Shown one piece after another: positions 3,494 to 40,641 of a stretch of 64,000 bases of DNA. The number at the start of each line of letters is the position of its first letter. Positions within the stretch are counted from its first letter, which is position 1. The stretch comes from Candidatus Lokiarchaeum ossiferum. GTDB lineage: Archaea > Asgardarchaeota > Lokiarchaeia > Sigyniarchaeales > Promethearchaeaceae. The position numbers and the translations under genes were made by a program. Location of the stretch: contig CP104013.1 of assembly GCA_025839675.1 (NCBI GenBank), forward strand, positions 3,041,121-3,105,120. Reading direction: 5' to 3'. Under the pieces are notes generated by a model. That model was not told where the DNA came from and searched no databases. It worked only from the letters and a program-made list of their open reading frames with translations.

Positions 3494-3639
3494 ATAGAAC
3501 TAAGGGGAACTTAAGTATTTGTGATAAATCTCTCCAAAGGTTTATAGAAAAGATTTCAAAATTTTTTTCACAATCTAATTTTATCTACTAACACGCATTT
3601 TTGAAGAATAATGTATCTTAAAATATTTGGAGGATTTTC

Positions 3640-4443
3640 ATGGCTGACACACCAATTGTAATCATCATTCTCGCGCTGATCTACATATCAAGTCTTTTAT
3701 TAATAGGGATATTTCTATTTTACAGAAGTATTAGAACTAAACTCCTTAACTTACGTGTTTTAGGGTTTGCTTTCATTGGTTTTGTAGTAGATTTTATTCT
3801 TATTTTTCTCAAAGCACCTTCTTTCTTAATAAATATTGTCGTGAATACTTGTTTTATTCTAATGACAATATTTACCTATACAACATTTTATAAAGGTCGC
3901 AAGAGATTGGGTACTATTTTTATAGGTGCAGTTATACTATTACGTTTAATAGACTGTATTGCACGGTGGAATTATAATTTCACCACACCACTTGCTTCTC
4001 CACTGACAGATGAGAGTAGAATCTATTATTATATCTTTCAATTCGCGGTTCGGGGAGAATTTACAATAGGTACCGGATGGCTTGCCTATTCATCACTCTC
4101 AACTTATTCCAATCAGAGAAAAATGGAAGACATTGAACCCTGGATCCAGAAACGTTATTTCATTTTAGGGATAGGAGCCCTAGTTTTTCTCTTGCAAGAT
4201 CTATTTGTTTTTCTGTTACCGATGGATGGGACAGGATACACAAGTCCACAAGGTATAATTGTAGGCATTTTACTGTTAATTGTCAGTATATTTTTTGGAG
4301 CCACTCAGCTAATTGGTTGGATCATGCCTCCCAAGTTGAAAGCCTATTTCAATCGCGATTTTCAACCCAAAAATAGTAACCAAAATGTTGATGAAGATCT
4401 TACTGAAGAAGAACTAATGAAGCAACTCATGGAGGATGTTTAA
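3640..4443 (+). CDS. integral membrane protein, unknown function
   Basis: 267 aa, 6-7 TM helices, acidic C-terminal tail. Confidence 0.5.
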   Translation: MADTPIVIIILALIYISSLLLIGIFLFYRSIRTKLLNLRVLGFAFIGFVVDFILIFLKAPSFLINIVVNTCFILMTIFTYTTFYKGRKRLGTIFIGAVILLRLIDCIARWNYNFTTPLASPLTDESRIYYYIFQFAVRGEFTIGTGWLAYSSLSTYSNQRKMEDIEPWIQKRYFILGIGALVFLLQDLFVFLLPMDGTGYTSPQGIIVGILLLIVSIFFGATQLIGWIMPPKLKAYFNRDFQPKNSNQNVDEDLTEEELMKQLMEDV

Positions 4444-8416: not shown

Positions 8417-9214
8417 ATGGCCACAAACGAAGAGGTACTCTTAAAAGTTGATCATTTATCAAAATCTTTTGAAAATGTTCACGCTGTTGATGGATTGTCA
8501 CTTGAAATTAAACGAGGAAAAATTTTTGGATTATTAGGTCCAAATGGAGCGGGAAAGACAACAACGGTTAAAATGCTGTTAGGACTCTTGGAACCTGATG
8601 AGGGAGAAATCTCAATTTTAGGATTACACCCCGAACGAGATGAGATTGAACTGAAAAATCGTATTGGTTATGTATCTGAAGAACCATTAATTTATAAATC
8701 TCTAACACCTAAAGAATTATTCAACTTCATCGCTTCTATCCGAAAATTAGATGGAGAAAAAGTTACCCAAAAATTGGCGGAATATTTGGAAGGATTGAGT
8801 GCAATCGAGTATTATGAGCGACTAATTTCTACCTTATCCCGAGGAAATAAACAAAAAATTCAAATAATTGCCGCTTTAATGCATGATCCTGCTCTATTGA
8901 TCATGGATGAGCCGTTATCAGGTTTAGATGCGAAATCAGTAAAAGTTGTGAAGGAAATTTTAGAATTACATACACAACGGGGAGGATCAGTTTTATTTTC
9001 AACCCACATCATGGAAATTGCAGAAGACTTATGTGATGAAATAGCGATAATAAACAAGGGTCAAGTTGTAGCTCAAGGAACTGTTGCAGAGTTACGACAA
9101 CGTGCAAACATGTTAGACGAAAAGATGGATTTGGAAGATATTTTCTTGAAATTAACTGATCAAGATGAATCCATAAATCATATCGTTGAAAAATTACGCG
9201 CAACTATATATTAA
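8417..9214 (+). CDS. ABC transporter ATP-binding protein
   Basis: Walker A GLLGPNGAGKTTT, ABC signature LSRGNKQKIQ, Walker B LLIMDEP, H-loop. Confidence 0.85.
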   Translation: MATNEEVLLKVDHLSKSFENVHAVDGLSLEIKRGKIFGLLGPNGAGKTTTVKMLLGLLEPDEGEISILGLHPERDEIELKNRIGYVSEEPLIYKSLTPKELFNFIASIRKLDGEKVTQKLAEYLEGLSAIEYYERLISTLSRGNKQKIQIIAALMHDPALLIMDEPLSGLDAKSVKVVKEILELHTQRGGSVLFSTHIMEIAEDLCDEIAIINKGQVVAQGTVAELRQRANMLDEKMDLEDIFLKLTDQDESINHIVEKLRATIY

Positions 9215-9233
9215 TAGAAGAGTGAAAATCAGA

Positions 9234-10952
9234 ATGAATAACAAACAGCTCTATCAAATCTCGAAATATTCTTACAATGAAGCCTATTTACAAAGCCAAT
9301 TGAATATGGCAGGGGCAAATTTGAATACTATAATGGAGAAGATGGAAAAAAATAAAAATTATTTGAAAACCATGAATATTATAACCAAAATAATCATGGT
9401 TGTATATGTATCCCTTCTTATTTTTCTCCCAATCACAGTTTTTATGAATATTAACACAGCCATCGATTTGGGTTATGATTCATGGGCCTATTTCTTGGGA
9501 AGTACAGTTATGGGAGCTTATTTCTTGGTTCAAGTATTATATATGTTGATGTTTGGTCTCTTTTATATAACTGGATTATTCTCCGGAGATGTTTTCAAAT
9601 GGCTTTCAACCTTACCAGTTAAGAAGGATGAGATGGGAAAAATCTGTATATGGACATTCTTCCGTGGAGTTGATGCTCCACTAATAGCCTTAATGTTAGT
9701 ATTTCCAATCGCAACAATTATTGTGACTCAAAACATATTAGTATTTATTGCGAGTATTTTTATTTCTGGATTAAACACCTTGTTTGCTTTTTCGATGTTG
9801 ATCATCTTAGGTAAAAAATTTACTAATCTGGTAAAAAGTGCAGATGCCAATTCTAAAAAGAATCGAACTATTCAAATAGCCTACTATATAATATACATGG
9901 TGGTTACTTTCATTGCGGTCTTAGGATTTCAGAATATCATGCCAGCAATAGAACCACTGTTTGAAAAAGAAATTGTAAATATGGAAATTGTTCTTTCATT
10001 GAATCAAATCATTTCATGGATACCATTTCCACTAAGTGGCGGTTCATTATTAACTGGAGCATTAATAGGATTTAGCAAAATACCGACAATCTCAATTATT
10101 TCATCATTTCTAGGATTAGGAGTATTTTTACTATTAGACATCTATTTAGTCAAAAAAGCCTCAAAAGTTCTCACAGATATAGTTTATGCCAAAGAAACCC
10201 GAAAAGGAGAAGAATTAAAGGAAAGTACTGTAAAAGATGTTCAACTAACAATAATTTCTCCGTTGCAATCTTATCGATCGAAAGATATCCAAATGGTAGG
10301 GCGGGATTTTCAATCTTTGATGATGCTATTAATGCCAGCAATTTTACCGACTCTTGGGTACATAGTAGGATTAACAATGAATGATGAATCAGGAGATTCA
10401 TTTTCAGCATTTAGTACAATATTCATCCTTTATGGAATGATGGGTGCATTTATGCAAACTGTTGGTTTATTTAACCTCGAAAATTCGGGAGCAACTATTA
10501 CAGCAACCTTACCAATAATTCCACGAGATCAAGCGAAGGGAAAATTGCAAATAATGTTTACTGTCTGTATATTTTCAGTTATAATTCCTGGAATCTTCCT
10601 CATTTTCACAAACCCAGTGGAAAATTGGTACTTTATTTACTTTGCAATTCTACCTATTCCATTATTGAGTATTGTTTTGGTTTTCCTTTTGAGAGTTCGC
10701 TTTTTTGGAAAATTGAAATATAAATATGTATTAGAAGAAGTACATTTGGAGAATAAAGCAAGTAAAATGATTGGAATAGGGGCGATTTGTTTAGTTTTTG
10801 GAGTGTTTATTTCTATTCTAGTTGGAGTATTTATCTCTGAAGTGGATCTCTGGATCTTTGTTTCGACTCTATTATCTTCTGAAATAGTAATTGGAGCAAT
10901 TTTCTATTATATCTTTAATAGGATGTTCCCTCGCGCAAAAATCTTTCAATAG
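9234..10952 (+). CDS. ABC transporter permease (multi-TM), partner of upstream ATPase
   Basis: Long hydrophobic ORF immediately after the ATPase. The start was moved from the track's 9186 to the ATG at 9234, 20 nt after the ATPase stop; the start is uncertain. Confidence 0.55.
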   Translation: MNNKQLYQISKYSYNEAYLQSQLNMAGANLNTIMEKMEKNKNYLKTMNIITKIIMVVYVSLLIFLPITVFMNINTAIDLGYDSWAYFLGSTVMGAYFLVQVLYMLMFGLFYITGLFSGDVFKWLSTLPVKKDEMGKICIWTFFRGVDAPLIALMLVFPIATIIVTQNILVFIASIFISGLNTLFAFSMLIILGKKFTNLVKSADANSKKNRTIQIAYYIIYMVVTFIAVLGFQNIMPAIEPLFEKEIVNMEIVLSLNQIISWIPFPLSGGSLLTGALIGFSKIPTISIISSFLGLGVFLLLDIYLVKKASKVLTDIVYAKETRKGEELKESTVKDVQLTIISPLQSYRSKDIQMVGRDFQSLMMLLMPAILPTLGYIVGLTMNDESGDSFSAFSTIFILYGMMGAFMQTVGLFNLENSGATITATLPIIPRDQAKGKLQIMFTVCIFSVIIPGIFLIFTNPVENWYFIYFAILPIPLLSIVLVFLLRVRFFGKLKYKYVLEEVHLENKASKMIGIGAICLVFGVFISILVGVFISEVDLWIFVSTLLSSEIVIGAIFYYIFNRMFPRAKIFQ

Positions 10953-11428: not shown

Positions 11429-12297
11429 TGAGTACAACTCCATTACCCAATTCGATAATTCCAAACCAAACGGAAAACCCTTCAGTGACCGATATTAAGG
11501 TTAGCTGGCGATCATTGAAACAAAATATTAAAGCGTTCTTAGGAATTGCATCTTTTTCCCTTGGAGCGACCTTCTTATGTATGATTTTTGTTACAGTAAT
11601 TGTTTTGATTGTCCTTTTAAATATGTATGATAGTTCCATAGTATATGATGAGCTATATACTACCCTAATCACCTATTTTATGTTACCTATCGAATTAATC
11701 ATTCTTTGGGGATTTTTCGGGTCAGGTTATGGATTGGCTTACGATATTATGTCTTCGGGGGATGGATTTGCGGAAGCAAAAAGTGGATTTCTCTATTTCC
11801 AAAAATTTTGGTGGCAATACATTGTTTTAGCTTTAATTTCGAATATAAGTGTATTTTTGACCATTTTTCCGGCTATTCCAATTTCAAATATGAGCTTGCT
11901 TCAACAGTTTCTGTATTTTTTCAGTGTCCATCTTTTGACTTTCGCTACCAATACTATTTTCTTTCTGACATTTCCTTCACTAACCGCCCAAGGTTCTTTT
12001 ATTAAATGCTTTAAAGAGAACTTTGCAATATTGCGCAATCACTTTAAACGGGTCGTTTCTTCAATGGGACTTATCTATCTGATCTTAAATTTACCGATTG
12101 GAATCTTAAGTTCGGTGTATTTTTCAAATCTTAATTATTTCGATGGCTCTCCAACCATAATTACTACAGTATTTATGATATTAGCAACTTTATTTGGATA
12201 CTCAATAGTAAATCCTATGTGGAACTTAGTGGCTACACGGGTTTACAACAGTTTTACCGAAATGGATGACGGAATTACAATTAAAACTCTCTTTTAA
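11429..12297 (+). CDS. integral membrane protein, unknown function
   Basis: Multi-TM ORF. The track starts at 11356 inside the ArsR gene; the ATG at 11429 (MSTTPLPN) avoids the overlap and is more plausible. Confidence 0.45.
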
Positions 12298-12372
12298 ACA
12301 CTTTTTTTTGATTTTAAATCTAAAAACTTTTTATCGGTTGGATATTCGCCTAACTAGAGATATTTTTAGAAA

Positions 12373-14850
12373 GTGATTATTATGCAAAACTTGCATTACA
12401 AACTACATTTAGAACCAAATTTAGAAACTTTCATCTTTCAAGGAACTACAACCATCAGTTTTACTTCGGAGAAAGAATTGAATGAAATTTCGCTCAATGC
12501 GAAAGAGCTGGGTATTTTTTCATGCAAACTATTAAAGAAGGAAAAAAAAGAAAAATGCTCCTTTATGCTAAATCCAGAAAAAGACCAGTTAATGATCAAT
12601 TTCAAGGAACCTAAACAAGGAGAAATCCAAATTGAAATCAATTACCATGGTATTATTAACGCCAATATGCTGGGATTTTATCGGAGTCGATATGAAACAA
12701 AAGATGGTGTCAAATATAATGCAGTGACTCAATTTGAAGAACGAGAAGCTCGACAAGCTTTCCCTGGATTTGATCACCCATCAAAAAAAGCAACTTTTGA
12801 TATAGAATTTGTGATCGATGAAAATCTAAAAGGTATTGCAAATACACCCATTAAAGAAGAAAAATCACTAGAAAATGGGAAGAAATTAATTATTTTCGAG
12901 CAAACACCAAGAATGAGCACCTACCTTTTATTTTTTGGAGTGGGAGATTATAGTTTTATCGAAGATAATTCAAAATTACCACATATTCGCGCAGTAGCAG
13001 TTCCAGATAAAATAGAATATGGGCAATTTGGGTTGGAATTTGGAAGAAAATCAATGGATTGGTTAGAGGATTACACGGGAATCCCTTTTCCTATTAAAAA
13101 ATGTGATTACATTGCTGTTTCCGACTTTGCTTTTGGAGCGATGGAAAACTATGGAGCCATAACCTTCCGAGAAAATGCTCTTTTAGTATATCCAGGAAAA
13201 ACATCTATACCGCAACTTAGCAGAATAGCAGACGTGATTGCCCATGAAACAGCCCATATGTGGTTTGGAGATTTAGTAAGCCCAAAAGATTGGAAATACA
13301 TATGGTTAAATGAATCCTTTGCATCTTATTTCACAGTTGCAGTTCCGAATGCTTATTATCCTGAATGGAAATTATGGGATCAATTTACCCTCAGCTCCAC
13401 CCTCGATGGACTCGAACGAGATTCATTAGTTGACACCATTCCTGTAGAATTACCAGGAGATGAAGAAGCAAATATTGATTTTTCCACAGCACCGATCATT
13501 TACAACAAAGGAGCTGCCATTATTCGTATGCTCGTGGGATATTTAGGTGCAGAGAAATTTAAAACCGGTGTGAATTACTTCTTGAAGAAATATGAATTTG
13601 AATGTGCAAATTCTGAGGAATATTGGGAGGCTTTTGAAAAAGCGACACAAGAACCAATTAAAGAATTTGCAGATTCATGGGTTCATCAACGTGGGTTCCC
13701 AATGATTACCGTGGAACGCAATGAAAAAGAATGTACTTTAACTCAAGAACGCTTTACATATTTACCAAATGAGGAAAATTCAAAATGGTTAATTCCACTG
13801 AATATCCAATATTATAATGAATTGGGAGAAATTCAGCGGGAGAAAGTCATTTTGGATGAGAAAACAAAAAAAATTACACTTCCTGAAGGAATTCATGCAC
13901 TGAAATTGAATGCAGATCAAGATAGTTTCTATCGAGTCAAATATTCAGATAGTATTTTAGAATTGCAAGGAAAACAAATTTCTTCTAAAAAAATGCCTCA
14001 TATGGATCGCTTCGGGATTGAAAATGATTTATTTGCCTTCGTTAAGAAGGGTGACTATACAATTGCACAGTATTTAGATATTTTAGAGAAATATTTCGGA
14101 ACAGAAGAAGATGATTTGGTCTTAATTGACATCGCGCGAAATCTTGGTACACTCTATAACATCAAGGAAGAGTTTGTTGAAAGAATTAAGAAATTTGGAA
14201 TCTCACTATTTGAACGAAAACTTGAATTATTAGGATATGAGCCGAAAATAGATGATTCACTCCAAGGAGCTAGTTTAAGAAATAGCTTACTTTGGTTGCT
14301 CTTTAAATTTGGTTCTGAGAAAGTGATCAAGTTTGGAGTCAAGAAATTCAAAGCGTTACTTGCTGGAGAAACCGTACATCCAGATATATTGGGAAGTGTT
14401 CTTCAAATAGGATCGGTAGCAGTTCCTGAAGGAAAAGCTTATTTACTTAAAATGTTGGTTTCACAGGAAACACCAGAAATGCAGAAACTATCTGCTCTTT
14501 CATCTTTAGGAAGCTCTGACAAACGTGAAAATTTGGAAGAATTCTTAAAACTTGGGTTTGATCAAGTACCTCCTAAAAATCGGGTGCAAGTTTTAGCGAC
14601 TATAGCAGGAAATAAATCTGCAATTCCATGGTTGTGGCAATGGTTTAAGGATAATTTCAAAACAATACAAGGTGGAATGCCCATTTTCCATGTGGGGATG
14701 GCGATTCCAATGATCACAAGGTACGCTGGAATCGGTCATGAAGAAGATGTTAAAAAATTCATCTCTGAGAAAGTGAAAGAATTTCCAATGTTTGATGCAA
14801 CAGCCAAAATGGGTTTAGAAATGCTGGAGATTTATTCCAGAATCCATTGA
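12373..14850 (+). CDS. pepN: M1-family aminopeptidase (aminopeptidase N-like)
   Basis: GAMEN exopeptidase motif (FGAMENYG) and zinc-binding HETAHMWFGDLV...WLNESFA (HExxH-18-E). 825 aa. The true start may be the ATG at 12382. Confidence 0.85.
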   Translation: MIIMQNLHYKLHLEPNLETFIFQGTTTISFTSEKELNEISLNAKELGIFSCKLLKKEKKEKCSFMLNPEKDQLMINFKEPKQGEIQIEINYHGIINANMLGFYRSRYETKDGVKYNAVTQFEEREARQAFPGFDHPSKKATFDIEFVIDENLKGIANTPIKEEKSLENGKKLIIFEQTPRMSTYLLFFGVGDYSFIEDNSKLPHIRAVAVPDKIEYGQFGLEFGRKSMDWLEDYTGIPFPIKKCDYIAVSDFAFGAMENYGAITFRENALLVYPGKTSIPQLSRIADVIAHETAHMWFGDLVSPKDWKYIWLNESFASYFTVAVPNAYYPEWKLWDQFTLSSTLDGLERDSLVDTIPVELPGDEEANIDFSTAPIIYNKGAAIIRMLVGYLGAEKFKTGVNYFLKKYEFECANSEEYWEAFEKATQEPIKEFADSWVHQRGFPMITVERNEKECTLTQERFTYLPNEENSKWLIPLNIQYYNELGEIQREKVILDEKTKKITLPEGIHALKLNADQDSFYRVKYSDSILELQGKQISSKKMPHMDRFGIENDLFAFVKKGDYTIAQYLDILEKYFGTEEDDLVLIDIARNLGTLYNIKEEFVERIKKFGISLFERKLELLGYEPKIDDSLQGASLRNSLLWLLFKFGSEKVIKFGVKKFKALLAGETVHPDILGSVLQIGSVAVPEGKAYLLKMLVSQETPEMQKLSALSSLGSSDKRENLEEFLKLGFDQVPPKNRVQVLATIAGNKSAIPWLWQWFKDNFKTIQGGMPIFHVGMAIPMITRYAGIGHEEDVKKFISEKVKEFPMFDATAKMGLEMLEIYSRIH

Positions 14851-14872
14851 AACGAATGAAATAGAAAAATCC

Positions 14873-14880
14873 TTTTTTTT
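14873..14880 (+). terminator. oligo-T terminator candidate after aminopeptidase
   Basis: 8-T run 23 nt after the stop at 14850. Confidence 0.3.
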
Positions 14881-15089
14881 ATCTTTACTTCTTTTTATAT
14901 TATTGTTTTAATAAAAAATATTGATTGCTTAACTACCAGCGGTTATGTGATATTGTCGGAAATTGTCGTAATGTTGCAAAGGTTTAAATTATTGATTGAT
15001 CAAATGAAATTTAGTTGTTATTTACGTCATAACAAATTTCTTTAATACCAAGCAAACACAACATCAAACTACGAAATAAAAAAGAGTGA

Positions 15090-30141: not shown

Positions 30142-30990
30142 TTAAAGACCATCCATCTTTCCCCCATTAATCGGAATAATGGCTCCATTCATGAAATATC
30201 CTCCTTCACTGCAAAGAAAACATACAGGATCACTCACATAAGATGTTTTTCCAATTCCAAACGGAATTCTACCCTCATAATAACTTCGGAATTTACCATC
30301 ATCCTTCTTTAAGAGGTTTCCAATAATTGGAGTTTCAATCAAAGTTGGTTTTAGTGCATGGGTTCGAATATTATATCTCGCGAGTTCTTTTGCCATGGTA
30401 AGCGTCATCCCTATAACCCCTGCTTTGGAAGCAGAATATGCTAATTGCCCTGCATTTCCTTCAGCAGCTAAGGAAGCCACGTGAATGACTACACGTGGTT
30501 TATTATCTAGAGTTGGAAGGTATTTTTCTCCTTTTTCTTTCGCCTTGGCACGGGAAAGATTCACCCATTTTGTAACCACTGCTTGAGAGCAAATCGCAGC
30601 CCCTTTCAAATTCACTTCCATGGTTAGATCCCATTTTGCTTCATCAAAACGACTGACTAGGAAATCACGTAAAATTCCAGCACAATTAACCAAAAAATCG
30701 ATATCTCCTATTTTATTGAAAATTGCATCAACCGAGGCATCAACAAAGACTTTATCAGATACAGAACCGTGGAAGAATAAGATTTCTTTGTTAGTAATTG
30801 CTTTTAATTTTTCAACCGCTTCATTTCCCATTTCTTGGTTTAAATCAATAATGGCGACATTAGCACCATTTTCAGCCATATCGGTGGCGATTTTCAGTCC
30901 TATTCCTGAGGCTCCACCAGTAATTAATATAGTTTTTCCTTCAAAATTCCATTTCATCGAATTTACCTTACCTGTCAAGGATTTAATCAA
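30142..30990 (-). CDS. SDR-family oxidoreductase (3-oxoacyl/3-hydroxyacyl reductase-like)
   Basis: TGGASGIGL cofactor motif, NCAG, catalytic YSASK. Confidence 0.8.
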   Translation of the reverse strand: MIKSLTGKVNSMKWNFEGKTILITGGASGIGLKIATDMAENGANVAIIDLNQEMGNEAVEKLKAITNKEILFFHGSVSDKVFVDASVDAIFNKIGDIDFLVNCAGILRDFLVSRFDEAKWDLTMEVNLKGAAICSQAVVTKWVNLSRAKAKEKGEKYLPTLDNKPRVVIHVASLAAEGNAGQLAYSASKAGVIGMTLTMAKELARYNIRTHALKPTLIETPIIGNLLKKDDGKFRSYYEGRIPFGIGKTSYVSDPVCFLCSEGGYFMNGAIIPINGGKMDGL

Positions 30991-31177
30991 AAATTTCTTT
31001 TGTGGTAGCTATGCGAAAGGTATCGCACCACTTTTTTTCATTTTTGATAAAAAGTACTTATAATTTAGCGATTTTTGATTAAAAAGTTTCATTTCTTTTG
31101 GAAATTATTAAAATTATTAAGCGATTTTTGGATTATATCACTATTTTCTTAAATACGTACTCTGCATATTTTCTAGT

Positions 31178-32833
31178 TTATATCATCGATGTTTGTTTCT
31201 TTTGACCATAGGGATTAATATCACCCATGGGAACAAAAATTTTTGAATCAGTCGGCAAAATCACCGTTTTTTCGACATTTTGAAAAGATTTAACTTGTTG
31301 TAATCGCAGATATTCTTCTGTTGTAGAACTTTCAAGTAATAAGAGAGTATTTTTCAAATGTAGTTCCTCTCCTTGATTAACTATAGATTCTCGCATTTGA
31401 ATGGATTCCATTTCCCCTCGTGTTCGCTCTATTGAGGCTTCAGCTTCAATTTTAGCATTTCCGATCTCTTTAAATTTAAAATTTGCCAGTTCCTTCTCAT
31501 ATAATGCTTGTTTTGTATCTTCTATTTCGATTCGTCCTTCCACCAATTGCCGTTCCGCTTCTAATTGAGCAGTTTGTTGAATTTTATTCACATATACATC
31601 CATATTGGATTTAATGGCGGCATTGAGTTGATTCGCAATTTCAGCATCTTGAGGTAGGATTTTCTTAATATCAAGCCCGAAGATCTCGAAATAATTTTCA
31701 TCAAAACGAAAATAGGTAAGATCATGCTTGAAAAGAACAGGTTCGATTAATTCAGCAGCTTTAGAATGAAATTCTTCAAAATTGTGTTGGGCAGCTTCTT
31801 GTCGGATGATGCTAGCCATGGTTTCGGTCGCATATCCGATAAAATCTTCCACCGCAAAAATTTTTTTCAAGTTTTTGGGATCTATATTGAACCGGGTTTT
31901 ATATCTAAGATGAATCAATAACTCCGCATTATCTTTGGTTCTCACACATAGCTGATCAGAAACGAACATTGGACCCAAAAAAATCTTCCATTTAGTCAAG
32001 ATATTTGGCATCTTGGGGGTTTTACCACTAATAATCAATGTTTTAAGCCGATCAAAGGGTTCTAACAAGAGCATTTTTGGTCCTATTTCTACTCGTTGTG
32101 TTTCACCAGAATTGATCATGGCAATTTCTTCCGTTTCTAATTTCAAAGGTATAGCCCGGGATGCATCAATTTGAACTCCAAGGATCTTTAAGGCTCTTTG
32201 TTCCGCGATTGAATAGTGCTTATAATAGAGTTCTTCAAAGGGAGTCAACATCAGAGTTTGAGGTCCCTTCTCTAAACGAACTTGCCCTGTATTAAAATTC
32301 TTTATATATAGGCCATCTTGTGCACCTAAACTAATTGCCTCTATTTCCTTCTCAATTTTGGTGTATATATGCGGATAATATATCATGGGTCCTTTTCTCA
32401 TCCAGATATCCCCCGCTTTGTGCATTATTTCATCTTCCCGATAATCTTGTATACATCTGATAATAAGTCCTCTATCATGGGCCAGAACATAATTATTGTA
32501 AATTTTTCCGTCTTCCAGTATTTCTCCAGGATATAATGAAAATATACATGGCCCTTGCCGAATCTCGCGCACACCATGTTTAATAATTCGCTTCTTTGAG
32601 TCATGAGGATTGATTATAGTAGCATATTGCCCTTCTTTTATTATTATTTTTTCTCGAATAGTTCCATATAGTTTTTTCCACCACAGATATTTTATTCTTC
32701 GGTACGGTCCTTCAATAAGGTTGACTTGACCGGTAAATTTGTTGATAACATGGCAATATTCCAATTCTGTGAGAATTAATGTCGATATTTTGTGCGTTTT
32801 TGCTGGGGAGGAAAGTTTTTTCATTGTACACAC
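31178..32833 (-). CDS. major vault protein (MVP) homolog, truncated form
   Basis: About 55-aa repeats. [54 protein letters not shown] matches the human MVP repeat [91 protein letters not shown] matches the MVP shoulder [38 protein letters not shown] (human sequence recalled from memory). C-terminal coiled coil. Confidence 0.6.
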   Translation of the reverse strand: [551 protein letters not shown]

Positions 32834-32949
32834 TTAAAAATAACTCAAGTATTTAATTTACCAATGTCACATAAATAATGTGACTATTGTGAATAATGAA
32901 AACTTTTTTTTCAAAGTAAAAATTGCATTTAGTATAGAGAATTAAGACA

Positions 32950-33681
32950 ATGATATATCAAGAACGAGTCCATGTTATTCCTGTTGGTGATGATGATGTT
33001 GATAGAATCGTAATTCCTGCCATTCAAGGGAAGGCTGATAAGGTGTACTTGGTCACTATGGACGATAAAGATTTGTTCCAAACTATCGTTCAAGAAGCGG
33101 AATCTCGTCTCAGAGATTTAAGGATTGAGGTAATCGTCAAACGTTGCAATTTGGAAAGCTTTAGTGATTTTATTTTAGAAATTGCCCGCATCATTAAGTC
33201 TGAGATAGACAAGAAAAACATACTAAACTATAGTATATCTACCGGAGGGAATCTTGCCGCAGCTGCTGGAATGTTAGCTTGTCTTCTATTTCAAATTCGG
33301 CCGTATTTTATTAAAAAAGATTTTTCTATTGGGAAAATATCTAAAGAGCAGTTGAATATTCCATTATACCATATGGATGTGCCTGGAAAACCCCTTATAT
33401 TATTTCTAAATGATATGAAAACTGAAATGGATAACCATGGTACCACCTCAATTTCCAAGAAGGATTGCTTGGAGCTCATGAAAAGACGTCACCCAGATGA
33501 AATTTTCTCATCTACTTCTGGTGAATATAATAAACTCAAGTTCCGCTATTTGGACAAACTTCTTGGTAATCATTTCATTGATATTGAAAGTAAAGTTCGC
33601 GGAAGAATCTCAATTACCTCTGAAGGACTGTTTGCTTGGGATTTCTTCACTATTTATTACAACGTTTCATCAAGAAATTAG
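32950..33681 (+). CDS. putative transcriptional regulator (HFX_2341/CARF-like Rossmann domain + C-terminal wHTH-like region)
   Basis: The N-terminus VHVIPVGDDDVDRIVIPAI resembles the VHIVPVGFEYDRV opening of archaeal HFX_2341-type/CARF-like regulators (memory-based). Divergent from the MVP gene. Confidence 0.35.
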   Translation: MIYQERVHVIPVGDDDVDRIVIPAIQGKADKVYLVTMDDKDLFQTIVQEAESRLRDLRIEVIVKRCNLESFSDFILEIARIIKSEIDKKNILNYSISTGGNLAAAAGMLACLLFQIRPYFIKKDFSIGKISKEQLNIPLYHMDVPGKPLILFLNDMKTEMDNHGTTSISKKDCLELMKRRHPDEIFSSTSGEYNKLKFRYLDKLLGNHFIDIESKVRGRISITSEGLFAWDFFTIYYNVSSRN

Positions 33682-33855
33682 GATCCCCATCATCTATTCA
33701 ATGGAGCTGAAATTCAAAAAAAAAGATGTTTTTCCAAATAAGACTGTCTGAATTACGAATTTCTTTTAACAATCTTAAATTAATAGCATGTTCTTCGACC
33801 TATTTACAAAGATTATATTTGGAGGGAGTGGTTTAACACAATTGGAGATATTTTT

Positions 33856-34293
33856 ATGAAATCAATAATCCGAATGCGAATGTCCATGCATGATGCCCAT
33901 TATGGTGGGAATTTAGTTGATGGCGCGAAAATGCTTAATCTTTTTGGTGATGTTGCCACAGAGTTGCTAATTCGAAATGATGGTGATGAAGGTCTTTTCC
34001 GAGCTTATGACAATGTTGAGTTCTTAGCCCCCGTTTATGCAGGCGATTACATTGAAGCCACGGGTGAAATTATTGGAATCGGCAATAGTTCCCGGAAGAT
34101 GCAGTTCGAAGCTCGCAAAGTAATTATTCCTCGACCGGATTTAAATGATAGTGCTTGTGATGTGCTCACAGAACCTATTGTTGTTTGTCGTGCCAGTGGA
34201 ACTTGTGTTGTACCGAAAAACAAGCAGCGAAATTTGATTCCAATATCCCAATCTACAGTACCAACTTCCCCTAGTGGTTTAGCATTTAAATAG
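33856..34293 (+). CDS. kal: 3-aminobutyryl-CoA ammonia-lyase (hot-dog fold)
   Basis: [62 protein letters not shown] closely matches bacterial Kal as recalled. 145 aa. Confidence 0.75.
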
Positions 34294-37200
34294 CTTCGAT
34301 ACTCGATGATGGAGGGTTTCTTCATTCAATTGTTTTTTTTCTTGTAATTCACCACAAATCTTCTTAAAATCTAACCAAATAACTGTAGTTAGTTTGCTCC
34401 TAATTTTTGGATATAAATTCTCAATCACCTCATACATACATATTTGTTCCGCCATGGAATAAGTCTGGTATCTTTTTTTTGGTAGAAATAGAGGTATTTC
34501 TAGATAATCTTGATTATTTTTCGCTAGAAAGAATGGTTGTTTTCGAGAAATATTTAGAAGTTTACTAATGTCCTTTTCATAATAAATATCATATGGGATA
34601 ATGGGAGTGATATAAAAGTCGAGATGATAAGATTCTAAGATTGAATAGAGTTTATCATATAAAATTTGTACATTTTCACGCAAATGCAAAAAAATAACCA
34701 ATTTTTGAGCGTCATTCTGGGAATTTTTAGTATAAAGTATTTGTCCAGTGGGTAGTTGTTCTACCAAGGCTCGAATTTCTTTTTCTCTTGTTTGAGAATC
34801 CTCAATGATTAGGCACATAGTGAATGGATAGCCGATTATTTGCCAGAATTCCCATTTAAAAAACCGAGGTTGATACAAGATATTATTGTTGAAAAGGAGT
34901 TGAACTTCAGTTTCAGAAAGATCTTGATTAGTTTGATATTTTTTGAGCATCGCTTTGAGATCCTCAGATAAAGTGTGAAAACTATAGTCATAGTGAATCT
35001 CATGTGGATTGACAAAAAACTCAGCATCTTTTTTCTTCACTTTTTTTAATAGTAAATAATTCTGATACCGCCAATCCAGAGGATAGAGAGCATGTTCATT
35101 AAAAAAACGTCTTTCTTCAGTTAATTCATGAGAGTGTAAGCTAATTTGAAATTTTAATTTAATATTTTTAATCAATCGTTGAAAATTTGAGTTTTGATCA
35201 TAATATATTTGTTCTGGAAGGTAATATTCTAAAATTAAAAACCCATTCTCATTCCCACCAAAATAATAGCAATTTTCAAGACCAAGCATTAATAAACCCT
35301 TCAGTAATTCATCTTTCTGAAAAATAAGTGGATTGATTCCTCTATTAGGTGGTTTGATGAAGATAAATATTCTCTTCATTTTTGAGATTGGTGGATAAAT
35401 TTTAAGATCTGAAAAGTAATATTGTGTAATCTCATTTAGATCATTTGAAAATTTTCCAACAATGGAGGAGTATATGTTATTATTTAAAACACAGCGATTT
35501 AGGAATATTTTTTTAAAAATCGATTGGATCTTTGTACGATTTAAACCTAAGGTCTTGGAAAAACTATTCAATTGATTAAAATAGTTTAAATTTTTGAATA
35601 AATAATTATAGTTAAATTTACTTTTAATAGAGCACTTTTGATTAAAATTTGTATTCAAATGCAGATTTTTGCTTGGTATTATTCGAGTGACTCGTTTTTT
35701 TGCTTCGTTAATTAAAAAATCAAGATTAAAACTTTCTAAATTCCATTCTTGTTTATTGTAATTAAAAAAGGTAATCATGGAAGGATCGAATGCTTTTGAG
35801 AAGTTTCTGTAAAGAATTGACAAAGAATCAATGTTTTCTAACAAAAGTAACTTAGATATGATTAAAAAGGAAGATATGTTTGCAAATATACCTTTATGAT
35901 GCATTATTTTTCTATATGGTAGAACTTGTTGAAATTTTATTGACACAAATAGGAGAAATACCTCATCGATCCAATCCAATTTATATTTGCTTAAAATAAA
36001 AAATTTTATCACCTCCTTGTGTGAATTAAAAAATGAATTAATGGCCATTATCTTCGAATTTCTTAATAAATCATTGTATATTAGAGAGATAAACTTGTTT
36101 TCAATGATTTGGAAAGAATGATTTTTGACTTGAGAAAAATTTCTTTTAATATCAGCTAAAGTTGGGAATAAGTCAATCTCTAAATCTAATTTTTCAATTG
36201 ATTCTGTACTCGTAAATCCGAAAAATTCTATCAATTTGAGAAGCTTAATTTCATTCTTATTTTCATAGCTTTGATTTTTATAATATTTGAAAATTTCATT
36301 CAATGAGGAAAACCGTTGAAAAACCTTATCTTGATTAAGATGGATGAAAGTTTTTTTCAATTGACTAAAATTTGGATAATTTTTAATTAAAACAGGAAAC
36401 TCACTCGTTTTAATGGTTAGTTTGATGAATTTCAAAAATTCTCTCATTGTTTTAAATTCTTGAAGTTTTGAAAGGAGCATACGTGAATTGAAGAATAGAA
36501 ATAAATCTAAAGAATCAATTTCGATCTTGTCGGATAATTTACTGCCATTTGCATAAAAAAGTTCTGAATTATGTGAAATTTTCTGGTTAAATGAATTTTT
36601 TCTTTTTTCATTGATTTTGGAAAAATATTTTTTAGAATTAAAGGGAAAGATCGAAAGAATGTTTGTTTCACTTGAAATTTTTGAATTATAATTAATATTA
36701 TAGTTCGCTTTTTTAATTTCTAATAAGTTATAACTAATTATGTATCCACTTTCCTTTAATGAATTAAGAAATTTCGCTAAAAAATTAAGAGAATTTCGAG
36801 GAAGGATGGAATAAAGGAATAAATCATATCCTTCCTTCCTAATAATATTAACGTATGGTATTTTATGGATAATTTTTTTTATAAATTTATTCTGATCGAT
36901 TCCATTAGCAAGAATTATGTTGACGTAGTAAATACCAAGATTGAGATTATTATATTGATTAACAACAAAATAATTTAAAATCATACTTCCAGTGTAAATT
37001 TCAGAATTGGAGCCTTTCCTATTTAGAAGAAGATCCCTATTCGATTTATGGAGATTTTTCTTAATAAAGCCTAAATTGATATTTTTTCCGATATAATTTC
37101 CATAGGTATAAAATAACCCTTGAATAAAATCATGGGTACTGATATTCTCTGATAAAAATGGAATAAAAGTCTTAAAAACAATTTCTAGAGATATATTTTG

Positions 37201-37599
37201 AAGAAAATTCTCGATAAATGAGAGATAAACCATCGAATTATTTATGATCCCTGAAAAATGATCCAAAATCTCTTGATAAATTGGCTTTAATTCAAATAAT
37301 TCATTGTTTTTAAAATGGAGAAGAAATATAAAAGAAATGATATTTCTGTTGTCTAAATATCTTTCATCCATGAAACTGATAATAGAAGCAAATTCTACCA
37401 ATTGAATATAATTGTCCTTGTAATTCGAATGAAGATGGATAGATTCACTCAATAATAACCCAAAGTTTTTTTGAAAATTAGAAATTTCATTAGGATCACT
37501 ATGAAATAAAATATTTTTAAAAATGAAATTAGGAATTCTTTCGAATAGAAGCTCATATTTTGAGATATATTGAAGATATTTTTCGTATAAAATTCCCAT
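34279..37599 (-). CDS. large (1106 aa) low-complexity N/K/I/F-rich hypothetical protein
   Basis: A 3.3-kb stop-free frame in AT-rich DNA is unlikely by chance. No recognisable domain. Its 3' end overlaps kal convergently by 15 nt. Confidence 0.5.
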
Positions 37600-37757
37600 T
37601 GACTGTTAATTACTGATTCATCTGGAAAGAAAAATCTTTCTATGAAAAATATATGATTTTAAAAATATTGACTTAATTAATTAATGAGAAAAATGTATGA
37701 AAAAACCCTTATTACGATTAATTTTTTGCAGTTTTCCATTCGTGAGGTGAATGATAA

Positions 37758-37793
37758 ATGAATGTTCCAAACGATGTACAACTCCCACAATAA
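37758..37793 (+). CDS. micro-ORF MNVPNDVQLPQ (11 codons) behind strong SD GAGGTGA
   Basis: SD at 37744-37750, 7-nt spacer, then ATG. A paralogous copy lies 380 bp downstream. Too short for the ORF track. Confidence 0.15.
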   Translation: MNVPNDVQLPQ

Positions 37794-37797
37794 AAAA

Positions 37798-37864
37798 AAT
37801 GTCCTTTAAAAACCAATTAGATCAAAAAATCTAAGAATGTCCTTTAAAAACCAAGTAGATCAAA
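37798..37864 (+). repeat. 38-bp tandem direct repeat (2 copies, 28/29 identical)
   Basis: AATGTCCTTTAAAAACCAATTAGATCAAA at 37798-37826 and AATGTCCTTTAAAAACCAAGTAGATCAAA at 37836-37864. Confidence 0.5.
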
Positions 37865-38137
37865 TCTACTTTTTTTAAAGTTCATTTGGTTAAACTTGTT
37901 GAATAATGAAGGGGTATTGAAATCAATTTTAATATACGTATTCATATTTATAGAGATTTTGAAGATATTTTTCGTATAAAATTCACGTTGACTGTTAATT
38001 ACTGAATCGTTAAATTAAAAAAGTGTTTCGAAATATTTTGAGTTTATATACTCAAATCTAAAAAATATCTGAGAAAAATGCATAATCCTAATTGTCCGGA
38101 AAATAATCCTGTTTTCTAACTTTGAGGTGACATGTTA

Positions 38138-38170
38138 AATGAAAATACCGAATGATGTATTTACTCCTTA
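38138..38170 (+). CDS. micro-ORF MKIPNDVFTP (10 codons) behind strong SD GAGGTGA
   Basis: SD at 38124-38130, then ATG at 38138. Paralog of the 37758 micro-ORF with synonymous changes at Pro and Asn codons. Confidence 0.15.
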
Positions 38171-38463
38171 AAAAATTAACTAATTGATTTCCCATGCAAT
38201 TTTGATGGAATAGATTTGATTAAATTGCTTGAAACTCAAATAGAATGAATTCTTTTCTTTTCAATATATCTTTATTTCAAATTCAATATTCATTTATCGT
38301 CTTAAAATCAATTTTTTTCAATTATATGAAATGAATCATTTCTGTTCCCCCTTTTTTTTTACTAAATTACCTATCTTTTCTCTTTAGCTAAAAATTAGAT
38401 CACATTTTTAATCGAATACAATATAAACAAAATTATTGCATTTTTACTCATGAGGTGATACCA

Positions 38464-39708
38464 ATGGTAGAAAAATTAAAACTTGAAAAATCCGAACAAT
38501 ATTACAAAGAAGCTCTTGAAGTAATTCCAGGTGCCATTTTGGGAATACGTAGACCCTATAATTTTGTTGTAGGTGAATATCCTATCTTTTTTGAAAGCGC
38601 TGATGGTGGAAAAGTGAAAGATGTTGATGGAAATGAATATATCGATATGCTTTGTGCATATGGACCTATTATCATAGGGCATAAGGAAAAAGAGATTGAT
38701 GATGCAGTTATTGCTCAGATACAGAATAAAGGATTCTGTTTCTCCCTTACCCAAGAAATCCAAAATAAACTGGCAAAAAAACTTACCGAATTGATCCCAT
38801 CATGTGAAAAAAGTGTGTTTGTGAAAACAGGATCAGACGCAACCACAACGGCAGTTAGAGTCGCACGAGGATATACAGATCGAACAAAAATTTTGCGCTG
38901 TGGCTATCATGGATGGCATGATTGGTGTGTAGAAGTAAAGGGTGGAGTTCTCCCAAAGACTTATGAGGATGTAATCGAATTTGAATATAACAATTTAGAG
39001 CAGGTAAAAGAATTATTTGAAAAGTATGGACCTGAAATAGCTGGAGTTATCATTACTCCAGTAGGACACCCTCTTGCACATGAAGTAGAGATGCCAAAAC
39101 AGGGATTTTTGGAAGGTATTCGAGAGATTACAGAAAAAAATGGAACTGTACTCATTTTTGATGAGATTCGGAGCGGATTTCGAGTGAATTTGGGCGGAGC
39201 CCAAAAAGAATTTGGAGTTACACCCGATATGTCCGTCTTTGGGAAAGCGATTGCCAATGGCTATCCTATTGGTGTGGTGGTAGGTAAAAGCGAATTTATG
39301 GATGTATTAGCAGACAAAGTGTTTTTAAGTTCCACATTCTTCCCAAACAGTTTGGCTCAAGTCGCTGCGCTGAAAACCATTGAAATTATGGAACGAGATA
39401 AGATTTTGGATGTGATCAGAGAAAAAGGGACAAAATTCGGAGCTATGATTGAAAAAATCATCAAAGAAAGCGGAATTGCGTGTACTTTTTCCGGTGCTCC
39501 TTGGATGCCCTTTATCACCTTTGATCATGATCCTAACAAGTTATATAAGAAATTGCGGAATGAATTCTATACCCGTTTAATCCGTCGAGGTGTTTTCCTC
39601 CAACCATATCATCATGGTTACATTGCTTACCGTCATTCCGAGGAGGATTTAGAATATGTGGCAAAAGTTATCAAAGAATCTCTAGAAGAATTAAAACAAT
39701 TTCTATAA
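38464..39708 (+). CDS. class-III aminotransferase of the glutamate-1-semialdehyde 2,1-aminomutase (HemL) family; candidate acyl-CoA beta-transaminase (Kat-like) or hemL
   Basis: VIPGAILG...DVDGNEYID...TGSDATTTAVRVARGYT...GYHGWHD...IFDEIRSGFRV...FGKAIANGYPIG (PLP-Lys in FGK) is colinear with HemL. The ATG at 38464 lies 6 nt after SD GAGGTGA; the track's 38455 is a GTG. Confidence 0.75.
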   Translation: MVEKLKLEKSEQYYKEALEVIPGAILGIRRPYNFVVGEYPIFFESADGGKVKDVDGNEYIDMLCAYGPIIIGHKEKEIDDAVIAQIQNKGFCFSLTQEIQNKLAKKLTELIPSCEKSVFVKTGSDATTTAVRVARGYTDRTKILRCGYHGWHDWCVEVKGGVLPKTYEDVIEFEYNNLEQVKELFEKYGPEIAGVIITPVGHPLAHEVEMPKQGFLEGIREITEKNGTVLIFDEIRSGFRVNLGGAQKEFGVTPDMSVFGKAIANGYPIGVVVGKSEFMDVLADKVFLSSTFFPNSLAQVAALKTIEIMERDKILDVIREKGTKFGAMIEKIIKESGIACTFSGAPWMPFITFDHDPNKLYKKLRNEFYTRLIRRGVFLQPYHHGYIAYRHSEEDLEYVAKVIKESLEELKQFL

Positions 39709-39819
39709 TTTGTGTTGAGTTTCCAGTTTTTTACAATTTTTTTTAATAACAAAAACCAGTTCAAATCCTTTTCTAAGAAAGAAATATGTGTTTAATAAAA
39801 AGTCCATATTAGTAATCAT

Positions 39820-40641
39820 ATGGAAAAATTGATCATAACCGCAGCGATAAGCGGTGCAGAAGTGATGAAGGAACATAACCCAGCGGTTCCATACACAATT
39901 GAAGAAATTGGAAGAGAAGCAGAATCAGCCTATAAAGCGGGAGCAAGTATCATTCATTTACATGTGCGAAATGATGATGGAACTCCTACCCAAGATAAAG
40001 CACGATTTCAAGCTTGTATGGAGGAAATTCGAAAACGTTGCTCAGATGTTATAATCCAACCTTCGACCGGTGGGGCAGTAGGAATGACCGATGATGAACG
40101 TTTACAACCGACAGAGTTATCTCCAGAAATGGCCACCCTCGATTGTGGAACCTGTAATTTTGGAGGGGATGATATTTTTGTCAATTCAGAAAACACCATT
40201 AAAAATTTCGCCATAAAGATAAAAGAACGCGGAATCAAACCCGAATGCGAATGTTTTGAAAAGGGACATATTGACATGGCCATTAAAATGCACAAGAAAG
40301 GATTGATTGATGCCCCAATGCACTTTAATATGGTGTTAGGAGTTTCAGGAGCAATGAGTGCCACCCCTCGAGATTTGACGTTTATGGTAGATAGTATTCC
40401 TTTGGGCTCAACCTTCACTGTATGCGCGATGGGGCGATATCAAATGCAAATGGCCGCAATTTCAATAGTACTCGGCGGACATGTTCGAGTGGGTTTTGAG
40501 GACAATGTCTATATTTCTCGAGGAGTGCTCGCCAAATCAAATGGAGAATTGGTGGAAAAAGCAGTTAGAATTGCAAAAGAGTTAGGGCGAGAAATTGCAA
40601 CTCCTGCCGAAACTCGAAAAATACTGGGATTAGTAAAGTAA
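39820..40641 (+). CDS. kce: 3-keto-5-aminohexanoate cleavage enzyme (BKACE/DUF849 TIM barrel)
   Basis: IITAAISGAE...IIHLHVRNDDG...PSTGGAVG...RVGFEDN with zinc ligands H-H-E conserved. Near-colinear with bacterial Kce as recalled. Confidence 0.8.
   Translation: MEKLIITAAISGAEVMKEHNPAVPYTIEEIGREAESAYKAGASIIHLHVRNDDGTPTQDKARFQACMEEIRKRCSDVIIQPSTGGAVGMTDDERLQPTELSPEMATLDCGTCNFGGDDIFVNSENTIKNFAIKIKERGIKPECECFEKGHIDMAIKMHKKGLIDAPMHFNMVLGVSGAMSATPRDLTFMVDSIPLGSTFTVCAMGRYQMQMAAISIVLGGHVRVGFEDNVYISRGVLAKSNGELVEKAVRIAKELGREIATPAETRKILGLVK

Follow-up and report, generated by a model that had tools for sequence, protein, structure and literature searches.

Why should an archaeon place strong Shine–Dalgarno (SD) sequences in front of open reading frames (ORFs) of no more than 10 or 11 codons? 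The question is raised by a spacer of 860 bp in Candidatus Lokiarchaeum ossiferum, located within a stretch of 64,000 nucleotides (contig CP104013.1, forward-strand positions 3,041,121 to 3,105,120; hereafter the window, to which all coordinates refer unless another locus is named). The spacer separates a gene for a giant protein from a kat-like aminotransferase gene, and the strongest SDs of the 64 kb serve two tiny ORFs within it (micro-ORFs), which are conserved beside one fast-evolving family of giant genes. Asgard archaea are the closest known relatives of eukaryotes and, to our knowledge, their gene-expression signals are almost unexplored by experiment. The answer to which we give slightly better than even credence, based on comparison of sequences, is that the spacer is part of a hypervariable divergent cassette, comprising an Lrp-like giant gene and a translated micro-ORF mini-gene, the control region of which was tandemly duplicated. 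We know of no previous description of a micro-ORF paired with a giant multi-Lrp-like gene in Asgard archaea.

The spacer is a tandem duplication

The preliminary description of the locus, made from the window alone, had divided the spacer into two degenerate units of ∼385 bp, the first containing the live start of the giant gene, the second a dead copy of it. The division held, with units of 389 bp:

34279..37599, − strand: giant gene NEF87_002599 (1106 aa), restricted to Lokiarchaeia and fast-evolving, with Lrp/AsnC-like modules in the predicted fold
37553..37941, + strand: repeat unit A, with the live giant-gene start, shared control region, micro-ORF A, and a terminator-like tail
37942..38330, + strand: repeat unit B, with the dead giant-gene start, degenerate control region, micro-ORF B, and a T-rich tail
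37553..37621, no strand assigned: island 1, copy A, ∼90% identical to copy B and spanning −22 to +47 relative to the giant ATG (37599-37597, − strand)
37942..38010, no strand assigned: island 1, copy B, with the dead start ACG-TGA at 37988-37983 (− strand)

A repeat search returned an 88-nt block (37553-37640 and 37942-38029) with 81% identity at a spacing of 389, inside which lie a perfect 26-mer (37570-37595 and 37959-37984) and a perfect 18-mer (37599-37616 and 37988-38005); neither has a third copy anywhere in the 64-kb window. The blocks containing SD and micro-ORF repeat at a spacing of 380-381 and a 17-mer at 385, which gives island spacings of 389, 381, and 385 between the units. Smith–Waterman comparison of unit A with unit B yielded a score of 89, compared with 15.9 ± 2.3 for shuffled sequences, and omitting the 88-nt block (island 1) still left a score of 40 (shuffles, 14.2 ± 2.1). 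The spacer is a tandem segmental duplication, head-to-tail and collinear, above chance. Because positions 37500-38500 were matched exactly in two independent Logan assemblies (SRR22273277 and SRR22273278; loci L005 and L006), it is not an assembly artefact.

The two copies have decayed unevenly. Global alignment of the units left four retained islands, the remainder being 53-57% identical, compared with 52.8% in shuffled AT-rich DNA. As most of the unit length is thus at the random baseline, the units appear to be old, or fast-decaying, copies with retained islands. Retention is nearly perfect in island 1, where the giant start ATG-GGA (37599-37594, − strand) corresponds to ACG-TGA (37988-37983, − strand) in unit B. 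The 47-nt core of the island contains two differences in total, one destroying the start codon and the other creating a stop codon. No stable RNA fold was predicted for island 1 on either strand (z-score about 0), and the simplest guess for its near-perfect conservation in a dead copy is a DNA-level operator or promoter.

Both units carry a micro-ORF preceded by a strong SD

On the strand opposite to the giant gene, which is also that of kat, each unit contains an SD, a micro-ORF, and a conserved box upstream of them:

37685..37698, + strand: conserved box TGAGAAAAATGTAT, ∼70 nt upstream of micro-ORF A and identical to 38070-38083 at 13 of 14 positions
37744..37750, + strand: SD GAGGTGA of micro-ORF A, 7-nt spacer
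37758..37793, + strand: micro-ORF A, MNVPNDVQLPQ, 11 codons before the stop
38070..38083, + strand: the same box in unit B, TGAGAAAAATGCAT, counterpart of 37685-37698
38124..38130, + strand: SD GAGGTGA of micro-ORF B, 8-nt spacer
38139..38171, + strand: micro-ORF B, MKIPNDVFTP, 10 codons before the stop

Both SDs had been placed 7 nt ahead of their start codons in the preliminary description; they are indeed present, and the distance applies to micro-ORF A, that of micro-ORF B being 8 nt. Its further claims, that a third identical SD precedes the aminotransferase gene and that strong SDs are otherwise rare, were both correct. The third GAGGTGA (38452-38458) lies 5 nt ahead of the kat ATG, and kat is the only one among the 47 long ORFs of the window with an SD match of more than 6 nt. 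When both strands of the whole window were searched for ATG codons preceded, 4-10 nt away, by an SD match of 7 nt or more, micro-ORF A, micro-ORF B, and kat were the only ones found. Strong SDs at the micro-ORFs are notable because SDs have been reported to be rare in Lokiarchaea (PMC12993045, PMC7531240).

Downstream of the micro-ORFs, terminator-like features were observed:

37795..37864, + strand: younger tandem duplication of 38 nt (94% identity) within the unit A tail
37854..37876, + strand: hairpin AGTAGAT-CAA-ATCTACT running into T7, the terminator-like end of the micro-ORF A unit (z-score −2.4)
38250..38360, + strand: oligo-T tracts T4CT4 (38250-38262), T7 (38312-38318), and C5T9 (38347-38360), located past micro-ORF B and ahead of the kat promoter

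Oligo-T is an established archaeal termination signal. The hairpin, together with its flanking A-run, reads the same on both strands, and it is the sole notable structure of the units, the folding energy of which is ordinary on either strand. Both copies of the 38-nt duplication can pair with 37872-37887, beside the hairpin and T7. Structure prediction found neither the alternative terminator/antiterminator hairpins that had been envisaged nor a stable leader fold, and an Rfam search gave matches at chance level only (SNORD20 at 20.8 bits, with a gathering score of 43 and E = 4.4). The notion, derived from this weak match, that island 1 is a C/D-box small RNA was rejected, as no C box is kept in both units. 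Promoters of an archaeal host are of the TATA/B recognition element (BRE) type; a scan for bacterial sigma-70 promoters and intrinsic terminators, which returned nothing above chance, is therefore irrelevant here. De novo derivation of a promoter motif by expectation-maximisation from 46 upstream regions gave a weak, uninformative result.

Micro-ORFs of the same type accompany giant genes in related genomes

Homologs of the giant gene were inspected in two relatives. One (L001) has the same flanking genes as the window and a kat product that is 95% identical; the other locus (L015) encodes the giant homolog P0124 (1104 aa) and stems from the same metagenome-assembled genome as an 88% identical kat relative, but is itself unrelated to kat (its neighbours are SBDS, HxlR, and SnoaL). 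Together with those of L. ossiferum (two copies), the micro-ORFs of L001 and L015 (three each) make up a sample of eight from three genomes. An initial view based on kat loci, according to which the units are simply absent from relatives, was revised once L015 had been inspected. Conservation in relatives, to which the preliminary description had looked, thus depends on the gene taken as the flank: it is absent with kat, and present with the giant gene in L001 and L015.

The spacer upstream of the L015 giant gene (890 nt, 3002-3889) consists of three degenerate tandem units at spacings of 481 and 287 nt, and only the last of them abuts the live giant start. The best-conserved box of each unit, on the strand opposite to the giant gene, is an SD followed by a 10-codon ORF: GAGGTGA-N5-TTG with MYPDPSIIPK, AGGAGG-N8-TTG with MYPDPIVIPN, and AGGAG-N9-TTG with MYPEPSTIPN, the latter alternatively starting at an ATG two codons earlier, M(K L)YPEPSTIPN. 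The L001 micro-ORFs, again opposite to the giant gene or a fragment of it, encode MIVPDQPFLPRC, MYPENGSLP, and MLPDNPNFPRC (each of these six peptides is followed by a stop codon). A tandem duplication of a promoter and 5′ region would ordinarily look much like the one in L. ossiferum, head-to-tail and collinear with one gene start dead. What sets it apart is the very uneven decay within its units and the fact that the same architecture arose separately upstream of a homolog with 27% identity, in L015, there with three units.

All eight peptides, from ORFs of 9-12 codons, share the signature hydrophobic-P-[D/N/E]-x4-P-x0-2-stop, and in all eight ORFs the start is preceded, at a distance of 5-11 nt, by an SD match of 4-7 nt (GAGGTGA in three). 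In every copy, 0-2 codons separate the second Pro from the stop; the first Pro, with its acidic or amide residue, precedes the second by 6 codons. The pattern was sought in ∼130 kb by a six-frame regular-expression scan. SD-led matches were found only in spacers adjoining giant genes; three background matches inside genes lacked an SD. Nine matches were counted in the four spacers, representing eight distinct ORFs, one of which has two possible starts, compared with a mean of 0.002 in 2000 shuffles, a statistic that is optimistic because the signature was defined after the data had been seen.

The pattern of substitutions points to selection on the peptide. Pro codons vary synonymously (CCA, CCC, CCG, CCT), and the minimal substitutions among copies within a genome are distributed 7/3/15 over the codon positions, that is, 15 of 25 at the third (binomial p = 0.0056; a small sample). 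The preliminary description had seen a hint of such selection in the L. ossiferum pair, and the recurrence in two other genomes, the synonymous Pro codons, and the third-position bias have strengthened it. The linkage of micro-ORF and giant gene is observed in three genomes, with frame, length, SD, and two prolines conserved.

The distances from micro-ORF start to giant start (or to its dead or truncated copy) were 159, 151, 501, 159, and 76 nt. A T-run of at least five occurs within 80 nt downstream in five of the eight copies, often inside or after a hairpin, and most copies are followed by a hairpin and/or a T-run and by no consistent downstream gene. A 60-aa ORF beginning 12 nt after the micro-ORF L015_a (L015 2819-3001, − strand) was considered as a conserved downstream gene and dismissed, having no homolog in the window or at the other loci. 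On the upstream side, the box GA(G)AAAAATGTA..AAAAAAC, ∼70 nt before the start, is shared by micro-ORF A, in part by micro-ORF B, and by L001_3, where its counterpart GAAAAATGTAAT..AAAAAAAC lies at equal distance; this TGAGAAAAATGYAT box is a candidate BRE/TATA-like promoter element. Each L015 unit contains, between the divergent starts, the perfect palindromic TATA-like sequence GATATAAAAATATC, centred ∼24 nt before the giant ATG, a spacing that, judged by general archaeal promoter geometry, would be expected for a leaderless giant mRNA. The L015 units and the 26-mer of L. ossiferum also have the 9-mer GATATTTTT in common, at a non-homologous position relative to the start codon.

The strict pattern GAGGTGA-N5-9-ATG NNN RTN CCN AAY GAY GT retrieved nothing relevant from 185,579 species genomes and JGI metagenomes; its matches were N-termini of long proteins from unrelated bacteria, mostly of high GC content. 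This pattern is too narrow, as it misses the real relatives in L001 and L015, and the genome collection does not contain L. ossiferum. Downstream of a distant giant homolog (23% identity; L017 8370-8408, − strand), an SD-led (GGTGAT) ORF of 12 codons, MNEPVHKPISPQ followed by a stop codon, begins and ends like micro-ORF A but differs in Pro-Pro spacing; it may be due to chance.

The cassette is hypervariable

Comparison with L001 delimited the region that carries the giant gene and the micro-ORFs:

34228..38394, no strand assigned: hypervariable cassette with the giant gene and the duplicated control region containing the micro-ORFs; the flanks align to L001, the interval does not

The flanks (30254-34227 and 38395-40632) are collinear with L001 at 86-89% DNA identity, whereas the cassette cannot be aligned at the DNA level with L001 3974-9931; the whole interval has been replaced. 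Its GC content is 24-30%, compared with 34-36% in the flanks. The L001 interval encodes a giant homolog of 1125 aa in the opposite orientation, with 29% end-to-end identity (E = 2e-122), and an additional truncated copy in two ORFs (8861-9331 and 9392-9718) that correspond to giant residues ∼800 to the end. A search for terminal inverted repeats that would explain the inversion gave none. The cassette is hypervariable, relocatable, and invertible, and its control region was tandemly duplicated in two lineages.

The giant protein contains predicted Lrp/AsnC-like modules

The 1106-aa ORF (34279-37599, − strand) is 100% identical to the hypothetical protein NEF87_002599 of L. ossiferum. A word-indexed protein search for homologs returned only the query, twice, and relatives became apparent in a full HMMER scan of 1.84 billion representatives, which yielded 31 family members, none with more than 39% identity over the matched stretches. 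Full-length members are 20-29% identical (the L001 and L015 homologs, 27-29%). No relatives were found in JGI metagenomes and viral contigs. Five family members had no Pfam match at E ≤ 1, including HTH_AsnC-type and AsnC_trans_reg (RAM); a profile search of the giant against the PDB was empty, and no PADLOC defence model matched it.

A confident AlphaFold2 model built on 29 family sequences (ma5223f303c37; predicted local distance difference test 81.5, predicted template-modelling score 0.83) shows repeated modules, each helical and beta-alpha-beta-beta-alpha-beta, and these helical plus RAM/ACT-like modules lie around residues 211-302, 512-601, 741-833, and 926-999. In Foldseek, NirDL and two Pyrococcus Lrp/AsnC proteins, PH0061 and PH0140, were local matches of this predicted model (probabilities 0.94-0.99), which is a likeness of a model and not family membership. 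The giant is apparently an undescribed multi-Lrp/AsnC-like architecture, restricted to Lokiarchaeia. In the Lrp/AsnC-like modules of its predicted model, its divergent neighbour, and its long upstream region, where boxes are repeated in two genomes, it resembles Lrp/AsnC regulators. Unlike these regulators of 150 residues, it comprises ∼1100 residues with several fused modules and has no sequence-profile match.

A divergent control region may be shared by the giant gene and a mini-gene

According to the explanation that we slightly favour, the 860-bp spacer would be the control region of a two-gene cassette in Lokiarchaeum-like archaea. One gene would encode the ∼1100-residue protein with several predicted Lrp/AsnC-like modules (winged helix plus RAM/ACT-like domain). 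The other would be a divergently transcribed mini-gene, consisting of a strong SD and an ORF of 9-12 codons, with a hairpin and/or oligo-T 40-80 nt downstream in most copies. In L. ossiferum, a segment of ∼389 bp, from giant codon 16 through the upstream region and the mini-gene, would have been duplicated head to tail, whereupon the extra giant start was presumably inactivated (ACG-TGA) and the extra micro-ORF left intact. The micro-ORFs would be transcribed as short separate units and translated.

Regulators of the Lrp type typically bind several regularly spaced sites, regulate their own genes, and act on adjacent, sometimes divergent, targets (PMC2995911). These habits fit a long repeat-containing control region common to the giant gene and a divergent mini-gene and, because they are common in the Lrp family, the giant may bind the repeated control region and regulate both itself and the mini-gene. 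The Pro/Asp-rich peptide, for its part, might make the micro-ORF a ribosome-pausing, possibly aIF5A-sensitive sensor, or might serve as ligand, partner, or target of the RAM-like domains of the giant. Short arrest peptides with Pro near the stop occur in bacteria. In yeast, tripeptide motifs of Pro, Asp, and Gly as well as termination depend on eIF5A (PMC5499558). A bolder version, which we deem distinctly unlikely, is that of a hitherto unknown peptide-based regulatory module, in which the peptide would either be the ligand of the poly-Lrp giant, forming a self-contained and fast-diversifying switch, or act as an aIF5A- or proline-sensitive arrest sensor that sets the output of the divergent control region. 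Should the arrest-sensor version prove true, the archaeal lineage closest to eukaryotes would have its first described mechanism of the leader- or arrest-peptide type. If merely translated, the micro-ORFs would be among the smallest conserved coding genes of archaea and a testable case of regulation at the level of a peptide or of translation; if not, the locus still demonstrates fast duplication, inversion, and replacement of cassettes between genomes that are ∼88% identical in the flanks.

Apart from the optimism of the shuffle statistic, several observations weigh against a translated mini-gene. The L. ossiferum peptides diverge after codon 7 via a 1-nt indel while ACTCC is kept at the nucleotide level, which indicates that the C-terminal half of the peptide is loosely constrained (the second Pro is present in both despite the shifted frame). 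The three L015 copies would start at TTG. The family was found in three closely related genomes only (kat 88-95% identical), and no such ORF exists upstream of four more distant giant genes, L017, L018 (Prometheoarchaeum syntrophicum), L020, and L021, where the spacers measure 233-334 nt. Finally, the retention of island 1 in the dead copy, including 47 nt of former coding sequence, is not accounted for.

The last point, the absence of RNA structure in that non-coding copy, and the ACTCC kept across the frameshift would be explained if the conserved pieces were DNA-level elements (operators for the Lrp-like giant, or parts of tandem bidirectional promoters), the ORFs and SD-like words being incidental. 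So would the perfect palindrome between micro-ORF and giant start in each L015 unit, and in the regions that control their own genes Lrp-type proteins are known to occupy multiple sites at regular spacing (PMC2995911). As an account of the whole spacer we nevertheless regard this as unlikely. Across genomes, only features relevant to translation are kept: the SD at 5-11 nt, the start, two Pro codons at a distance of exactly 18 nt with free third bases, the acidic or amide codon, and the stop after another 0-2 codons. Reduced to nucleotides, CCN-RAN-N12-CCN is too weak as a protein-binding site, and the third-position bias (p = 0.0056) also speaks against it. DNA-level conservation may well apply to island 1, yet leave island 2 unexplained.

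An improbable alternative is neutral wreckage, that is, a slippage-prone AT-rich spacer that was duplicated and is decaying, with micro-ORFs that are functionless remnants, such as the dead 5′ end of a lost gene. Most of each unit is indeed at the random baseline, the younger 38-nt duplication shows that slippage is ongoing, and the cassette is hypervariable, down to a pseudogenised giant fragment in L001. However, SD, frame, length, and both prolines persist in eight copies from three genomes, amid spacers that cannot be aligned and giants that are 27-29% identical, far beyond the chance expectation of 0.002 matches, and the duplicated unit has lost its giant start but kept the start of its micro-ORF.

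We give equally little credit to a third possibility, in which the product is the short RNA itself: promoter competition or transcriptional interference, caused by divergent or antisense transcription from the units, would control the giant gene, and the sole effect of translation would be to stabilise the RNA. The micro-ORFs are always divergent and start 76-501 nt from the giant start, the terminator-like ends suggest short transcripts, and tandem copies would add promoters. Against it, there is no conserved RNA structure and no Rfam match, the conservation is patterned by codons rather than by nucleotides, and a strong SD would be needless for a non-coding RNA in a lineage that seldom uses SDs.

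The micro-ORFs are independent of kat

The preliminary description had also proposed that the micro-ORFs act on the downstream gene, by leader-peptide attenuation or translational control of the kat-like/kce lysine-fermentation genes. In L. ossiferum the arrangement would permit it, as kat follows the micro-ORFs on the + strand, beyond the T-runs. The relevant features are as follows:

38395..38463, + strand: kat upstream block, with TATA-like AATATAAA at 38420-38427 and SD at 38452-38458; conserved in L001 and outside the cassette
38464..39708, + strand: kat-like class-III aminotransferase gene (3-aminobutanoyl-CoA transaminase-like), a neighbour outside the feature

The true ATG of kat is at 38464 (the database protein has 414 aa, and relatives are annotated as 3-aminobutanoyl-CoA transaminase). 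Because the last 72 nt before it are 90% identical to L001 9932-10003, kat has a conserved upstream block of its own, and in L001 the micro-ORFs are on the other strand. At an 88% identical kat (contigs L007 and L008), a short-chain dehydrogenase gene is divergent from kat across a 235-nt spacer without any unit or micro-ORF; at a 77% identical one (L009), a GTPase gene lies upstream, again with no micro-ORF. The block being kept in L001, and the units being absent from these kat relatives, the units are not part of kat/kce regulation; the L015 micro-ORFs, too, are at a locus unrelated to kat. In L. ossiferum, the runs T7 and C5T9 stand between micro-ORF B and the promoter of kat.

The TGAGGTGA octamer that kat shares with the micro-ORFs results from three substitutions within 6 nt of the block: the kat SD is AAAGTGAT in L001 and GAGGTGAT in L. 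ossiferum, within the ribosome-binding sites CAGAAAGTGATACC (L001 9983-10000) and CATGAGGTGATACC (window 38446-38463), respectively. Descent of the micro-ORFs from the kat start by copying and decay, which would make the latter a third unit, was considered and discarded, as the comparison scored at chance level (16 versus 13.8 ± 2.1) and nothing was left once the shared octamer had been masked.

Nor do the micro-ORFs have the properties of attenuators of the trpL/hisL type. They run against kat in L001, belong to a locus unrelated to it in L015, and are missing ahead of kat in L007, L008, and L009; the peptides contain 2-3 Pro at fixed positions, with neither runs of a codon nor enrichment in Lys; and no mutually exclusive hairpins were predicted (z-scores about 0 except for the terminator hairpin). 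A role as leader peptides of kat/kce, largely refuted by synteny, thus has next to no probability.

Micro-ORFs resemble known short peptides in form

Very short peptides with regulatory functions include bacterial arrest and leader peptides (TnaC, the Erm/Cat/Cml leaders, SecM) and, in eukaryotes, conserved-peptide upstream ORFs such as AdoMetDC MAGDIS and AZIN1 uCC. Like arrest and leader peptides, the micro-ORFs are very short and apparently initiated efficiently, and they conserve a small number of residues (Pro, Asp) whose distance from the stop or stall site is constant. Contexts of Pro and Asp similar to theirs pause ribosomes and depend on EF-P/eIF5A (PMC5499558). Unlike them, the micro-ORFs are archaeal, occur in tandem copies without a consistent downstream sense gene, and have a divergent giant gene as their constant partner.

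Tiny precursor ORFs offer another comparison. MccA, the precursor ORF of microcin C, has 7 codons. As with MccA, the micro-ORFs comprise ∼10 codons or fewer, have their own SD, and are linked to a large partner protein (their translation being presumed). In contrast to the MccA system, neither the giant nor the neighbours carry the signature of a ThiF/E1-like MccB or another enzyme for ribosomally synthesized and post-translationally modified peptides, and the C-termini of the micro-ORFs (Q, P, C, C, P, K, N, N) do not follow the rule of a C-terminal Asn. In form, therefore, the micro-ORFs resemble leader or arrest peptides and tiny precursor ORFs, while lacking what defines an attenuator or microcin C.

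Small-ORF proteomes of archaea have been charted by ribosome profiling in Haloferax volcanii (PMC10117724) and Methanosarcina mazei (PMC11456600), small proteins being those of up to 70 aa. The micro-ORFs are likewise unannotated and intergenic, but with 9-12 codons, an unusually strong SD in an SD-poor lineage, and a tie to one gene family they differ from the ORFs found there.

Neighbouring genes

According to Pfam, the left neighbours of the cassette are a major-vault-protein-like gene, an HFX_2341-like gene, and a thioesterase gene; to the right follow the class-III aminotransferase (kat-like), a BKACE enzyme, a DEAD helicase, and CoA-transferases. The giant gene (− strand) and the thioesterase gene (+ strand) overlap by 15 nt at their 3′ ends (34279-34293), and the similarity between the window and L001 stops 66 nt ahead of the thioesterase stop codon. 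Compared with the window, L001 has three additional ORFs without a Pfam match (294, 235, and 191 aa; 12160-14912), inserted between the genes for BKACE and the DEAD helicase. The vault-like gene (31178-32833, − strand) encodes a Major Vault Protein-type product of 551 aa in this Asgard archaeon, with repeat and shoulder domains (Pfam Vault, Vault_2, Vault_3, and MVP_shoulder), and is also kept in L001 (939-2570).

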